NCBI GenBank assembly: GCA_951406725.2
Contig: OX597838.1
Span: 4,092,001 to 4,156,000 of the forward strand
DNA: 64,000 nucleotides
DNA from: Octopus vulgaris
Lineage: Eukaryota
Reading direction: 5' to 3'
The position numbers are program-made. Positions 8,201-16,819 of this stretch are shown in pieces; the first letter of the stretch is position 1; the number at the start of each line of letters is the position of its first letter.

Positions 8201-11200
8201 AAAGGAACGGAATTCATTTTTATCACATATTTTAAAAGAAAAAAAAATGTTAGTTCTTACAAAAATGGAATAAATTATTTTATAGTAAGAAAGAGGGGGG
8301 TGGATAAATGTTTCGGTTAGAAATTTCTTATTTGGAAAGAAATAAAATTCAAATATTTAACGATTAGGCGCAGGCATGGCTGTGTGGCGAGACGTTTGCT
8401 TCCCAACCGTGAAGTCCTGGGTTCGGTCCCACTATTTGGCACCTGGACAAGTGTCGTCTACTATAGTCCTGGGCCAATCAAAGCTTTTGAATAGATTTGG
8501 CAGACGGAAACTGAAATAAGCCCATGTGTATGTGTATCGTAGTCCCGAACCACAGCTTGATAACCGATATTGGTTTGTTTACGTCCCCGTACCATAGCGG
8601 TTCGGGTAAAAGACACACTGATAGAATAAGCATTAGGGTGGATTTATTAGATTAAAACCCTTCAATGTGGCGCTCCAGCAGGGCCGCAGTTCAATCACTG
8701 GAACAAGTAAACGATAGTGTTAGACAGGCAGATTGCATAGCATGTCTATAATATGCGTGGGATAATCGTCTGTGATAATCCAAAGATTATAAAGTCAGAT
8801 CTAACAGGGAACCGTGAAACCTTTCCATCTGCTGGAAGTAGCCACCAAATCTTCCTTGGGTTTATATACCATATTGTCTCTTAAAAATGATACTTTGAAT
8901 GGTGTACTATGCCTTTAAAGCAGAACCGAAACGAAATGATTATTGCTGTGAGGCCTTTGATAATAGGGCTGATCAGGGCTGACTGGGGCTGATCAGGGCT
9001 GACTGGGGCTGATAGGGCTGAGTGGGGCTGATCAGGGCCCTTTTGAGGTTAAACAAAATCGATGTTTCAACTAAAATATAAATACAGATTTTGTAAAAGA
9101 TCGTCAAAGAAAGACTTTTAATCATTACAGATAGCTGCATTTATTAAATATAGCAATTTTATCGATATTAGTCGTTAATCTATTTAAATTATTAATAATA
9201 AATTATATGTTAAGATCAAAAATTATTATTAAATGACATTTAAAATATCAAAATGATTCATTTCGAAACTAAGGCTCAGAAACTGGTTATAACTGTCAAT
9301 TTACATCGAGTAGGATAAGAAAGTTCGACATTATTTTAATATCTGCACATTTTGAAAATAATTACTCCGTTTTATTTTTAAAATATTACAATGGATATTT
9401 ACGGGTCATTTTTGAAACTTTTCTTTTTCTCTTTACGCGAACAGATATGAAACGCAATGTCTTCTTGTTCGAAACTAGAGTTGGGAGGCTGGCTTTAGTT
9501 GTTTATTCACCATCATGGCCAACACTGTCGTGTTCCGACGTCTGCTAAAATCTCTTTCGCTGAATTCTTCCTTCAACAATGTTGTTCGGTGAATAGAAAC
9601 TTATAATTTACCTTTATATGTTTTCAGCAATTGTTTTAGCATCCGTCCCATATCTTCCTGTCATCTGTAATATTACAACTCAACGGAGAGCAGCCTCTGT
9701 TTATAGTCACATCCCGTTTGCAATCAGCACAGTTTTCTGTGGTCTATTTACTGCAATTCCAGCTGTTGACACATTCGCTTATAATCAGATTTTGTGGTGT
9801 AAAAATTTTCTATAATAATACTCTTGTGTTTTTCTCCGTCACAACATATGAATGAGAAATGGGCGATCTTACGGTTTGAGTACCGTTTACGTCAACTGGA
9901 CCACATGCGATTGTTTACATAAGATCGGTTCCTGTAACGAAAGATCGCCGAGAAAGGAAGTGGTGATGGCAAACTGGTAGTGAGATGATGGAAATTCTAC
10001 GGTGAAAAATGTCCAAACAGCGTTTCAATTCTGTGTGTGCACATGGGAAGTATGTGAATGTTTGTATGTGCGAACCAGAGTTCTTCCAGTAACACGATGA
10101 TAGATGTGGCATCTCAAAAGACAACCATTAGATAACATTGACGAGTGTGTTAATTTGATTGACCATCCATATTCTATCTGCTGTGTTATAAATAATTATC
10201 ACAGTCACACACACTTACACAAGCATATACAAACTCATTAGAGAAAATAATTATTGCCTGAGTGTATCAAGAATATAAAACGACCGCAGTTGAAAGGTTT
10301 ATCATAAATACACATTTAACGGTTAAAACATGTCCTTTATTTACATTAAGGAATTTATGCATAGGGAGTTTTTACATCAGCTGTAAGTCATGGACGGCTT
10401 TTTGTGGCTTTAAGTCGTATGAGTTTAGGTTCGTTTCAATAATGGAGAGTGCAATTGAAAGGAAGCGTCGCTTAGCGAGAGAAAGACAGAGGAATTGCAG
10501 AGCAAGGCTCTCAGCTGAAAAAGCTGCTGCCGTCAGAAAGAAAGATAGAATTCGAGAAGCACATCGCCGTAAAAATGAAACTGCTTTTGAAACTGCTGCA
10601 AGGAGAAAATATCAAAGAGAAAAAATTTTGCAAAGGATTGCAAACGAAACAGAAGAAGAGGCTATTCAAAGACGGCAAAAGAATGCCAATGCAATGAGAG
10701 CTGCCCGGGTAAATAATGCAGGTTTTATACCTGATAATTACACATATTCAGAAAACGGAGTCCACATTCATAACTGTGGAAATATGGATTCCGTTTGCCA
10801 GTTTTGCTCAGGAAAGCATTTTTCAGCTGAGAAACCATCAGATGGACGTTTCAATAATTGTTGTCACAAAGGCAAAATTTTACGTCCTATCAGAAGAGAA
10901 TTTCCACCATATTTAGTTTCATTGTTATCTGATCAAAATCATCCTCATTATAGAAATTTCCAAGAAAACATTCGGTCATATAATTCATCACTGTCATTCA
11001 CTTCGATGGGTGCTCAACTGCAGAATCCACCAGAAAAAGGTCCATCTTGTTTCCGTGTGCATGGACAAATTTACCACAGAGCTTCACATATTTATCCAAA
11101 TGAAGGTAAACAAAGACAATACGCTCAGCTTTATGTTGTAGACAGCACCCAAGCAACAGAAATAAGAGCTCAGGATCATGTCAATTCAGGCTGCCTCCAA

Positions 11201-14200: not shown

Positions 14201-16819
14201 CAAAAATCAAAGATTCGCTCGAATTGAATACCAAGATATTATCACTTCCAGATGGAGTCTTACAGATCTATCAAAGTGTTGATGTGTTTGTTGGCTGACG
14301 AAAGCAATGAGAATATCATGAATTATCCGATGCTCCCCGTACAATCTAGAACTGAAGAAAAATTCCATTGCGGTTTTGCTGAGAAATTTGGACACTGCTA
14401 ATGGCTTGCTGAATGGAACTCGATTTTTGGTTTTATCTCCTAAAAATCATTCTTGACAGTAAGAAAGGAAGTGAAGCTTTCATACCATGAGTTGACCTGC
14501 GTCCAAGTGAAATAGATCTACCCTTCAATATGAGGAGGCAGAAGTTCCCTGTGATACCAGCTTTTGCCATGACCATAAACAAATGGCAAGGACAGAGCTT
14601 CGAAAAAGTTGGTATTTACTTGCCAGCTCCTGTATTTAGTCACGGTGAGCTTTATGTGGCCTTAAGTCGTATAAAAAGGAAGGAAAACTTTAAAATTCGT
14701 TTTGACGGAAACAAGCAGTCAAGGGATGTTAGTTGCAAATGGATCTTTCACGCAAAATTTGATAATAAAAGAATTATTAAACTAAAAATTTGGTTTTGTA
14801 CCTTATTTATTTATAAAATATTACAATTAGCCATCGTTTTTGACAGCACGGGGCCAGTTAATATATTTATAATATAGCTATATAGACTGATGATACAGTA
14901 TGGACGGATTTTCGAAGTCCAATAATACCCTGTACACCTATTTGATTATGAAGATTTACAAACATACTTTCTCAGTGAAACTCAATATACCTACCATTAT
15001 AGATAATACCAAATGTTCCTTTTCGGACTTTTCATAATGTGATACAGGTCTTTGGTATAGCAATTGCATGTGGCTGAAGAGCTTTAAACCATCTGTTATG
15101 TCGATTATACATTGATGTAAGAATAAGTTGTTTTATAAAGCTTGAAACACGTGTACCACGACATCCTTTGTGTTCTGTTTTTTATTTCATTTGATACATA
15201 TGTCCTCTCACCTCTGCTACTAGCTGGCATATACAGGTGCTTACATTTATCAAGTATTCACCCTGAATTTATATATATATATATCTGTCCAACCCATGCT
15301 AGCATGGAAAGCGGACGTTAAACGATGATGATGATGATATGTATACAAAGATTGCTTCCCAACCACATGGTTCCAGGTTCAGTCCCACTACATAATGGCA
15401 CCTTGGGCAAATGTGTTCAACTATAGCCTCAAGTTGACCAAAGCCTTGTGAGTGGATTTGGTGGACGGAAACTGAAAGAAACCTATCATGTATACATGTA
15501 TATAAATATATATATATATTGTGTGTGTGTGTCTTTGTTTTTGTGTTTGTCCACCACCACCACCAAAAAACTTATATTTTCATCCCCCAAAATTGCTGGC
15601 CTTGTGCCAAAATTTGAAACCAATAATCTTTTCCTTCAGAACAGCTTATAACCTAATAGGGATGGATACAAGAAGTTTGTTAAATATCTAAACAATTGGG
15701 AAAAGTTGTTGTTAACCCTTTTAGCACCAACCCCTGCATCTATGATACAAACTTCTTGTGTTTAAAGGGATTTAAGTTAAAACCTTCCATCACAATTTCC
15801 TGTTGATTTATATTCCAAACGCCAGATTAATATTGCTTTCAAATTTTAGCACAAGGCCAGCAATTTCAGAAGAAGGGGTAAGTTGGTCACATCAATCCCA
15901 GTGCTCGACTGGTCCTTATTTTATTGACCCTGAAAGGATGAAAGGCAAAAATCTACCTCAGCAGAATTTGAACTCAAGACATAAAGATGAGCAAAATGCC
16001 ACTAAGCATTTCACCTGGCATGCTAACGATTCTGCCCGCTCTTTACCTGAAGTTAGGGGTGGTGGGTGGGGCTAATCGATTACATGGACCCAGTACTCAA
16101 CTGGTTCTTGTCTCGGAGTGGCTGGCGTTAGGAAGGGCATCCAGCTGTAGAAACTTTACCAGATCAGATTGGGGCCTGGTGCAGCCTCCTGGCTTCCCAG
16201 ATCCCACTTGAACCGTCCAACCCATGCCAGCATGGAAAACGGACGTTAAACGATGATGATGATGTATGTGTGTTGTGTGTCTGTGTTTGTTTCCTCATTA
16301 CCACTTGACAACCAGTGTTGGCATCTTTACATCCCCATAACTTAGAAGTTTGGCAAAAGAGACCAATAGCATTATTAGTACAGTGGATCAATTCATTCAA
16401 CTAAACATTCAGGACAGTATCTCAGCATGGCTGCAGTCCAATGACTGAAACATGTAACAAGTAACAAAAAAAGAAAAAGTCAAAATTAAGCACAGAAAAG
16501 TGGTTTTGCTTCATGGCTTTGCAAAAAAAAAATCTCTTCTCTTGCTGCGAGAAGCAGAGACACCCCACCCTCCCAGTGGCACTTTTGACAAAAGACACTA
16601 TTCTTTTATTTGTTTCAATCATTTGACTGTGACCATGCTGGAGCATAGCCTTTAGTCAAACAAATCGATCCCGGGACTTATTCTTTATAAGCCTAGTACT
16701 TATTCTATCGGTCTGTTTTGCAGAACCGCTAAGTTACGGGGACGTAAACACACCAGCATTGGTTGTCAAGTGATGGTGGGGGTAGGGGACAAACACAAAA
16801 CACACACACACATATATAC

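Follow-up and report, generated by a model that had tools for sequence, protein, structure and literature searches.

A Helitron relic of Octopus vulgaris keeps a long Rep-derived open reading frame and may encode a non-catalytic host protein

Many host genes are known to have arisen from DDE-type transposases, and the P-element KP repressor, THAP9 and SETMAR represent truncated or inactive transposase repressors or domesticated DNA-binding derivatives. The open reading frame (ORF) that we describe here in the octopus shares the logic proposed for these proteins, in which a DNA-binding domain is kept while catalysis is lost, leaving a possible competitor or regulator. Unlike the octopus ORF, however, they derive from DDE/RNase-H-type or THAP-containing transposases. 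Autonomous Helitrons have 5'-TC ... CTRR-3' ends with a subterminal hairpin and insert at A|T.

In the portions of the literature searched, no animal host gene derived from a Helitron Rep was found; Helitron co-option appears there only as proposals, for a bracovirus segment and for Paramecium, and PMC8788227 does not mention domestication. The Helitron of Cotesia vestalis bracovirus segment c35 (PMC5714489) is a low-copy, intact coding sequence that has been proposed to be co-opted; its whole Rep/Hel and both ends are intact and a replication role was proposed for it (PMC5714489), whereas in the octopus catalysis is dead and only the Rep-derived frame is kept. Rep-only Helitron ORFs of other animals (e.g. 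Gordionus, Microcaecilia and Haemonchus; ~600-1100 aa, Helitron_like_N without PIF1) are truncated copies, as is that of the octopus, and their sequences make them look like young ones: H-H-Y-Y is present in all 36 that cover the active site and core conservation is high, whereas the octopus core is dead and old-looking, yet open.

The closest characterised relative is Helraiser, the Helibat1 Rep-Hel (PDB 7LCC; PMC4778049), which was the sole solved-structure match to the octopus ORF (E 2.7e-264 over aa 8-986) and has the same architecture and domain order. The octopus ORF keeps a Helraiser-like zinc-finger-like N-terminal domain and Rep motif 1 (FLTMTCNP), along with the first member of the His pair and of the Tyr pair; it differs in carrying Arg at the equivalent of H595 and Asp at the equivalent of Y731, in lacking an invariant 8-aa segment at the border between the N-terminal domain and the nuclease, and in having a helicase that lies behind a stop and is interrupted by more stops and frameshifts. 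In Helraiser, transposition is abolished when H593 and H595 are mutated together, by Y731F and by mutation of Walker A, and Y731F also abolishes ssDNA cleavage (PMC4778049).

The locus is a Helitron Rep/Hel relic present in single copy in the 64-kb stretch of O. vulgaris OX597838.1 that was analysed (hereafter the window). Translation, Pfam and homology delimit an ORF of 992 aa at 10442..13420 (+), running from ATG to TAA and derived from the N-terminal two thirds of the Rep/Hel transposase, with Helitron_like_N (PF14214) matching aa 400-569 (E 1.1e-44). We searched it as a continuous genomic frame and found neither stop nor frameshift, as the original prediction had stated, together with the ATG context that it had singled out (caataATGG). 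We consider it plausible, at a probability of roughly 45%, although unproven, that this ORF has been domesticated as a host gene, and a neutral relic is a serious rival to that reading.

The TAA that ends the ORF (13418..13420, +) parts it from an in-frame PIF1-type helicase pseudogene at 13421..14779 (+), which was identified by Pfam, by tblastn and with a profile built from 71 full-length homologs and matched to the region. The helicase resumes in the ORF frame directly past this TAA, with a Walker A remnant (GPDGTGKM) at 13517-13540. When the ORF pieces of the helicase were each scanned separately against Pfam, the fragment at 13538-13990 matched PIF1 (PF05970, E 4.4e-36) and that at 14530-14874 matched the helicase C-terminus weakly. 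Profile-matching pieces lie in frame 0 at 10472-14053, frame 2 at 14062-14301, frame 1 at 14331-14459 and frame 2 at 14440-14718, with a weak frame 0 piece at 14681-14779. The frame therefore shifts around 14054-14061, 14302-14330 and 14440-14459, with a possible further shift at ~14700, so that the roughly three frameshifts foreseen amount to three solid ones and one doubtful. The three in-frame stops reported earlier (TAA 13418, TGA 13991 and TGA 14488) are all present, an additional TGA at 14296 ends one helicase frame piece, and ~19 profile positions are deleted. Upstream of the ORF, the string 'SHGRLFVALSR' at 10386-10418 was considered as a helicase motif and treated as a chance resemblance (tblastn E = 1.5, no profile match).

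The two AATAAA motifs said to lie in the dead helicase do occur, at 13993..13998 (+) and 14764..14769 (+), and are possible polyadenylation signals, but they do not discriminate domestication from relic. In favour of a gene, the ORF start adjoins the sole CpG-undepleted 5-kb domain of the window, and gene models annotate the locus as protein-coding in both O. vulgaris and O. sinensis. No transcript- or contig-derived fragment at >=90% identity was among the matches listed, and LOC115224483 received no mention in the literature searched. The predicted O. vulgaris model (P0002) contains an in-frame 822-nt 'intron' at 11897..12718 (+), with donor GTGAGA and acceptor CAG, that would take out aa 486-759, most of the nuclease core.

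This core accounts for most of the damage within the ORF. The degenerate HUH nuclease core occupies aa 436-760 (11747..12721, +), and of its conserved columns, defined as those at least 90% conserved in the 71 full-length homologs, 18 of 87 are substituted and 3 more are deleted. The HUH remnant at 12131..12139 (+) reads His564-Ala-Arg566, with Arg replacing the second His (Helraiser H595), and the Tyr motif remnant KYVYKD at 12530..12547 (+) keeps Tyr698 (Helraiser Y727) and has Asp702 in place of Y731, in a column that is Tyr in 99% of the 71 homologs. The in-frame loss described before 'TGSAR' proved to be an 8-aa deletion just ahead of 'TGSARN' (11843..11863, +), covering profile positions 470-477, which are occupied in 71/71 homologs. 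The claim that the Rep half is intact apart from this deletion does not hold, as the active site is dead (H-A-R for H-x-H, Tyr to Asp), and judging from these substitutions the nuclease has lost the ability to cleave and join DNA. Because of this dead site, the product of the ORF, if it is a gene, would not be a working Rep. An active Helitron is likewise ruled out by the loss of catalytic residues and of a working helicase: the Rep domain of an autonomous element is present, while the full pair of HUH histidines, the Y-x3-Y tyrosines and a PIF1-type helicase fused in frame are not, the last being interrupted by the TAA, 2-3 further stops and 3-4 frameshifts. Among database homologs that cover all four catalytic positions, H-H-Y-Y is found in 115/117, and among these 117 only the octopus pair couples an extended open frame to an inactive site. 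Conservation of the core is 0.79 in the octopus ORF, below all 118 homologs (minimum 0.835, median 0.967), and both of its lineage-specific indels, of 8 aa and 7 aa, preserve the frame and are accompanied by no stop.

The flanking parts of the ORF have fared differently. The N-terminal domain (aa 1-435; 10442..11746, +), which is basic at its start (29% K+R in aa 1-100) and has a Cys cluster resembling a zinc finger at 10775-10876, keeps 32/32 conserved columns, and the C-terminal 232 aa between nuclease and helicase motor (12722..13417, +) keep 19/21. Together they have lost 2/53, compared with 21/90 in the core (p = 0.0018) and 11/72 in the helicase (p = 0.042), where 61/70 are kept and 2 more are deleted. 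Scoring all columns against the profile gave the same ranking of regions with weak z-scores, and by this measure the N-terminal domain (z = -0.42) does not differ significantly from the first helicase half (z = -0.80). In position, the degraded zone (profile 446-770) corresponds to the Helraiser nuclease domain as delimited by proteolysis (residues 490-745), and in that protein ssDNA binding requires the N-terminal 489 aa (PMC4778049).

We then compared the open frame with chance. The asymmetry between an open Rep half and a broken helicase is real: the 1362-nt helicase has suffered no fewer than 6-7 disabling lesions and the 2976-nt ORF 0. The probability of 6 or 7 lesions all hitting the final 31% of the element is 1e-3 or 3e-4, respectively, close to the earlier estimate of well under 1%. 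Losses of conserved residues relative to lesions number 20/0 in the Rep half versus 9/7 in the helicase (Fisher p = 0.0014). In simulations, the probability of no stop was 0.08 at 1.8% neutral divergence and 0.02 at 3%, and that of the whole ORF staying open was 0.0005 at 5.5% and about 0 at 9%. A mark of domestication, namely a frame kept open longer than neutral decay allows, is thus present at this locus. Missense decay without a stop or frameshift over 2976 nt has a chance of about 1e-3 or less and is hard to get by chance, which favours selection for a non-catalytic protein.

The O. sinensis protein (P0001) is likewise 992 aa long, with 34 differences, no indel, the same dead residues and the same stop after aa 992, and appears ortholog-like from its sequence. 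With a neutral rate of 0.0036 substitutions/site/My (PMC13282606) and a split of the two species at 2.5 My (PMC10700109), ~38 missense differences would be expected under neutrality against the 34/992 seen, so that omega is ~0.9 overall, as a proxy from amino-acid differences and literature rates. By the same literature-rate proxy, omega is ~1.0 in the N-terminal domain, where function is proposed to reside, and ~0.3 in the last 232 aa only, which are the slowest part (3 interspecies differences versus 8.9 expected, P = 0.023); it would be 0.4-0.5 if the true neutral divergence were 3-4%. The differences do not avoid conserved columns (6/223 versus 21/517, p = 0.68). By our own estimate from the helicase indel-to-substitution ratio, ~4 indels would be expected between the species at 1.8% neutral divergence, and 0 are seen. 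Constraint across the ORF as a whole is weak at present, and conservation of the open frame can be traced back about 2.5 My. The original prediction that purifying selection keeps a Rep-only host gene stands in part: the lesion asymmetry, the O. sinensis protein, the lack of a close annotated paralog and the region-specific retention speak for it, but the overall omega and the indifference of substitutions to conserved columns speak against it.

These same rates are what an ordinary dead Helitron copy would show if it were decaying without selection, its 992-codon frame being open by luck and moderate age, a scenario to which we assign a substantial chance that nonetheless falls short of even. 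It accommodates the near-neutral omega, the equal frequency with which differences strike conserved and variable columns, the loss of catalytic and many invariant core residues and, at 1.8-3% divergence, an open-frame probability of 0.08-0.02. The locus was also chosen for its long ORF, and the 84 Helitron families of the O. vulgaris genome (28.6 Mb) provide many chances for a lucky open frame. No ortholog in O. bimaculoides or any other cephalopod beyond the species pair was annotated among the matches listed, in which cephalopod proteins made up 2 of the best 120 of 266, 1 of 94 and 0 of the best 120 of 259. Such luck would, however, require three coincidences together. All lesions would have to lie in the last 31%, conserved losses would have to concentrate in the core rather than in the flanking ORF parts, and neither species could have gained a new stop or indel since the split. 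Moreover, the 23% loss of conserved core residues misfits a young age, and the open frame misfits an old one (P <= 0.0005).

A second alternative is that the locus belongs to a multi-copy non-autonomous Helitron family whose lesions and dead residues go back to a defective master copy, the protein of O. sinensis then being a paralog and no ortholog. Recent activity lends this some credence, as 8 O. vulgaris Helitron families have 178 insertions at most 2% from consensus, averaging ~4.3 kb, and a related fragment of 63% identity (P0161) lies elsewhere in O. sinensis. For the O. vulgaris annotation, genes were predicted ab initio on an assembly whose repeats had been masked, which could account for the odd partial model described above. 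We nevertheless regard a family of this kind as improbable: at >=90% identity there is a single protein cluster, with 2 member sequences on 1 contig; no other octopus protein exceeded 63% identity among the matches listed in protein searches; the window holds one copy; and the lesion asymmetry of the master copy would itself be left unexplained. Finally, a mosaic copy, in which recombination or gene conversion joined an old and a young copy, the young one supplying the N- and C-terminal segments and the old one the core and helicase, would fit the segment-wise decay but is very unlikely, needing at least 3 breakpoints that coincide with protein domain borders and an old core that should have brought stops where none are present, and gaining no support from a CpG observed/expected ratio that is uniform across segments (0.48-0.63).

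Repeats present at least 3 times in the window are absent from 6241 to 15351, which agrees with the SINE-free setting noted before, but this does not discriminate because a younger insertion would be SINE-free anyway. A UBE2D-like UQ_con exon was detected by Pfam at 27201-27482 (-). The METTL14 gene placed upstream could not be recovered, since no MT-A70 match was obtained with Pfam on 105 ORFs of at least 75 aa from the whole window and 115 ORFs of 38-74 aa from 1-10.4 kb; in that interval neither the short ORFs nor those of at least 75 aa had any Pfam match. An inverted-repeat scan and reading of 14700-15500 yielded no convincing hairpin plus CTRR, with neither another copy nor an empty site by which to delimit the element. 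The scan returned AT-rich palindromes and CCATGCT/AGCATGG at 15294-15307, beside a repeated SINE-like element, and we assigned no Helitron terminus from these.

Returning to domestication, the explanation that we favour is as follows. One autonomous Helitron (Rep/Hel) copy would already have been in place before O. vulgaris and O. sinensis split; its helicase is now a pseudogene and its HUH nuclease inactive, while the first 992 codons have been held open, most likely by selection. The product, if expressed, would be a non-catalytic nuclear protein retaining a zinc-finger-like, putatively DNA-binding N-terminal domain and the ~230-aa post-nuclease region, with the dead nuclease core carried merely as an in-frame spacer. 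Its most likely action would be to bind, without cleavage, the single-stranded or hairpin ends of Helitrons or else a site in the host, and it could act, for example, as a competitor or repressor of related Helitrons then expanding in the lineage. An arms-race binder of Helitron ends would explain both the open frame and the near-neutral amino-acid rate. Only tentatively, then, do we propose in its specific form that this is the first animal Helitron-derived host gene for a Rep-only dead protein, ~15-30 My old in the O. vulgaris lineage and encoding a fast-evolving Helitron-end binder such as an arms-race repressor.

An open frame of 992 codons in a dead Helitron means that the protein may have been put to use by the host. 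If the locus is instead a neutral relic, it would serve as a useful warning that a 1-kb-scale open frame and a stop conserved in a sister species are no proof of function. If it is a recent gene for a Rep-only protein without a working active site, it would show how a rolling-circle transposase can be reduced to a DNA-binding module, and domestication of very recent date, or a repressor encoded by a transposon, could then be studied conveniently in a cephalopod whose Helitrons are still active.

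The Rep half of this Helitron relic is a single unbroken frame of 992 codons at 10442-13420 (+), running from an ATG in caataATGG context to a TAA, and Pfam places the Helitron Rep domain at residues 400-569 of the ORF (E = 1.1e-44). The helicase follows directly behind the TAA at 13418 with the reading frame unchanged; downstream of the ORF, Pfam matches a PIF1 helicase fragment at 13538-13990 (E = 4.4e-36) and, weakly, the helicase C-terminus at 14530-14874. Compared with a profile of 71 full-length homologs (all 1300-1700-aa proteins among the best 120 of 266 database matches), the helicase breaks into four pieces: one ending at 14053 in frame 0, then 14062-14301 in frame 2, 14331-14459 in frame 1, and 14440-14718 in frame 2. 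A fifth, at 14681-14779 in frame 0, is doubtful. In-frame stops stand at 13418 (TAA), 13991 (TGA), and 14488 (TGA), with a further TGA at 14296. The original prediction of an open Rep half beside a broken helicase describes this element correctly: at least 6-7 disabling lesions fall in the helicase third, three to four of them frameshifts, versus none in the first 2976 nt, where the two lineage-specific indels are both in frame.

Among relatives, a solved structure exists only for Helraiser (7LCC), the Helitron transposase from bat, which aligns to ORF residues 8-986 (E = 2.7e-264). Judged by this alignment, the Rep half, which had been predicted to be intact apart from one in-frame lesion, is not intact as an enzyme: the second His has become Arg (His-Ala-Arg against H593-A-H595 in Helraiser) and the second Tyr has become Asp (Tyr...Asp against Y727...Y731). 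In Helraiser, transposition is reported to be abolished in the H593/H595 double mutant and on mutation of Y727, Y731, or K1068, and ssDNA cleavage in Y731F (PMC4778049). We surveyed the catalytic residues in 214 database proteins aligned to the profile, 117 of which cover all four positions and 97 of which do not. H-H-Y-Y is found in 115 of the 117, whereas the O. sinensis ortholog reads H-R-Y-D and a reptile protein C-H-Y-Y; the other Rep-only proteins carry H-H-Y-Y in 36 of 36 cases. The loss of an 'ILPSSF' segment, already noticed in the original prediction, corresponds to an in-frame deletion of 8 aa that are occupied in 71 of 71 homologs, and a second in-frame loss removes a 7-aa loop.

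Decay was then scored by region, using columns with a conservation of 90% or more across the 71 full-length homologs. All 32 such columns are kept in the N-terminal domain (profile 1-445; none deleted), 69 of 87 in the nuclease core (profile 446-780; three deleted), 19 of 21 in the region up to the stop (profile 781-1012; none deleted), and 61 of 70 in the helicase (two deleted); the four closest relatives keep ~90-100% per region, the lowest value being 28 of 31 in the first helicase half. Conserved losses in the N- and C-terminal parts combined (2/53) are fewer than in the core (21/90; Fisher p = 0.0018) or the helicase (11/72; p = 0.042), and core and helicase do not differ significantly (p = 0.24). 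In the core, O. vulgaris retains a conserved fraction of 0.79 and O. sinensis one of 0.83; each lies below every one of the 118 homologs covering at least 70 of the core conserved columns (minimum 0.835, median 0.967). The degraded zone coincides with the Helraiser nuclease domain, residues 490-745, as reported from limited proteolysis (PMC4778049). Scoring of all columns, a softer measure, left the region order unchanged with weak contrasts (z-scores of +0.43 for the C-terminal part, -0.42 for the N-terminal domain, -0.80 for the first helicase half, -1.42 for the core, and -2.39 for the second helicase half).

The best database match is the O. sinensis 'uncharacterized protein LOC115224483' (P0001; 992 aa, 97% identical, full length), which differs from the O. 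vulgaris protein at 34 of 992 positions. The two species are reported to have split 2.5 My ago, with a mitogenome difference of 3.21% (PMC10700109); combining this split with a calibration of JC 0.09 = 25 My (PMC13282606) gives a neutral nuclear divergence of ~1.8%. On this basis about 38 differences are expected in the whole ORF and 34 observed (omega about 0.9), with 16.7 expected and 17 observed in the N-terminal domain (about 1.0), 12.5 and 14 in the core (about 1.1), and 8.9 and 3 in the last 232 aa (about 0.3; P = 0.023). Omega is here a proxy that sets amino-acid differences against a literature-calibrated rate; it would be 0.4-0.5 if neutral divergence were 3-4%. No avoidance of conserved columns by the species differences was seen (6/223 conserved versus 21/517 variable; p = 0.68), both kinds of column being hit equally often; recent amino-acid evolution of the ORF thus looks close to neutral. 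Of the six conserved-column differences, five map to the nuclease core, with O. vulgaris carrying the derived state. At ORF residues 475, 555, 614, 727, and 728 (about 11864-12627), O. vulgaris has a derived residue at highly conserved core columns; O. sinensis has the family consensus at 475, 555, 614, and 728, and at 727, where the consensus is Arg, the similar residue Lys. Extra losses at columns at least 90% conserved number three in O. vulgaris and none in O. sinensis, so that, on these small numbers, the core seems to be decaying faster in the lineage of O. vulgaris. Neither lineage has gained a stop since the split (P = 0.08), and there are no indels; by our own estimate from the helicase indel-to-substitution ratio, about 4 indels would be expected, the probability of none being about 0.02.

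Random substitutions in the ORF create stops in 4.3-5.3% of cases, and the nonsense-to-missense ratio is 0.062-0.071. Under simulated neutral decay, the probability of an open frame is 0.08 at a divergence of 1.8%, 0.02 at 3%, 0.0005 at 5.5%, and about 0 at 9%. The loss of conserved residues amounts to 15-23% in core and helicase; from the decay simulation we infer that this corresponds to roughly 5-9% neutral divergence, which would fit the Helitron expansion in O. vulgaris, dated to JC 0.09 or 25 My (PMC13282606). With 6-7 lesions, chance would place every one of them in the last 31% of the element with a probability of 1e-3 to 3e-4, and conserved losses and disabling lesions number 20 and 0 in the Rep half versus 9 and 7 in the helicase (p = 0.0014). 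Two time slices carry one signature: the ORF has accepted amino-acid replacements, those at the active site included, but no change that breaks the frame. Conserved residues are retained in the N-terminal, DNA-binding domain and in the region after the nuclease. This is most simply explained by selection for a non-catalytic protein product under weak or fast-evolving sequence constraint, a tentative reading to which we assign a probability of about 45%. A neutral relic with a luckily open frame is a serious rival, doubtful but quite conceivable: omega is estimated at close to 1, the conservation seen spans about 2.5 My only, the O. vulgaris genome reportedly holds 84 Helitron families (28.6 Mb), and the locus was picked for its long ORF.

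Our protein search, in which the ORF was used as a continuous genomic frame as in the other homology searches, returned 266 proteins at E <= 0.001 among 8000 scored candidates, the best 120 of which were listed. The second match is an O. vulgaris database gene model, 'hypothetical predicted protein' (P0002; 604 aa, 100% identical), which starts at Met115 and joins residues 115-485 to residues 760-992, omitting 11897-12718 (822 nt) as a predicted in-frame intron with donor GTGAGA and acceptor CAG. These 822 nt are most of the dead nuclease core; the predicted splice may mark a genuine isoform or stem from repeat masking or from the behaviour of the gene finder. The next best proteins among the matches listed are 50-59% identical and come from horsehair worm, mantis shrimp, and similar sources. 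Cephalopod proteins account for 2 of the 120 listed (of 266) in this search, 1 of the 94 listed in a second, and 0 of the 120 listed (of 259) in a third, with no O. bimaculoides protein among the matches listed in the three, and the window contains one Helitron copy; membership in a multi-copy defective Helitron family is, in our judgement, unlikely. The single cephalopod match of the second search, O. sinensis LOC115211747 (P0161; 171 aa, 63% identical to residues 262-413), is a more distant, second annotated fragment of a Helitron N-terminal domain; the lineage has left other remnants in octopus. A recombinant mosaic of segments is very improbable, as CpG observed/expected is uniform across segments (0.48-0.63), with no sign that they differ in age.

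Of the two neighbours predicted for the ORF, UBE2D is represented by a UBE2D-like exon at 27201-27482 (-) coding for part of the ubiquitin-conjugating enzyme core (Pfam UQ_con, E = 3.7e-13). This exon and the low CpG past 15 kb together suggest that the minus strand carries a methylated gene body here. METTL14 upstream is unconfirmed, Pfam giving no MT-A70 (METTL14-type) match within 1-10400 in 115 ORFs of 38-74 aa or in ORFs of at least 75 aa. The predicted SINE-free zone holds, no repeat family of the window occurring between 6241 and 15351. Its 3' limit is marked by a palindrome, CCATGCT/AGCATGG, at 15294-15307, immediately before a repeated SINE-like element at 15352-15550 that recurs in the window. 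Inside this zone and ending at the ORF start, 6001-11000 is the sole CpG-undepleted stretch of the window: observed/expected per kb is 0.75-1.10, compared with 0.37 over the window as a whole and 0.06-0.5 past 15 kb. This stretch may be a promoter or intergenic island that is unmethylated in the germline, and it could drive the ORF. At 10386-10418 (+, frame 3), 24 nt before the ATG, the peptide SHGRLFVALSR resembles the helicase C-terminal SHGQLYVALSR of the Helitron homolog P0003 (tblastn E = 1.5) and had no match in the profile search; the likeness is probably chance, though it could be the trace of a tandem upstream copy. Self-similarity is very high at 866-933, 1141-1859, 2098-2226, 16789-16860, and 20658-20719 (118-154 overlapping self-hits), and at 1032-1907 several frames are open together, at lengths of 292, 261, and 201 aa, none of them matched by Pfam; the stretches within 866-2226, 16789-16860, and 20658-20719 are simple or tandem repeat DNA.

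Helitron co-option appears only as proposals in the literature searched, including passages of PMC13085455, PMC5714489, and PMC8788227, namely an intact Helitron in a bracovirus segment and a hypothesis in Paramecium. In the titles, abstracts, and selected passages that we searched, we found neither a Rep-only Helitron-derived host gene of an animal nor a mention of LOC115224483. For Helraiser, ssDNA binding is reported to require the N-terminal 489 aa (PMC4778049). If selection does maintain a non-catalytic product of this ORF, then by analogy with the Helraiser domain experiments the protein would bind Helitron-end-like DNA in the nucleus without cleaving it and, once bound, may compete with active Helitrons.
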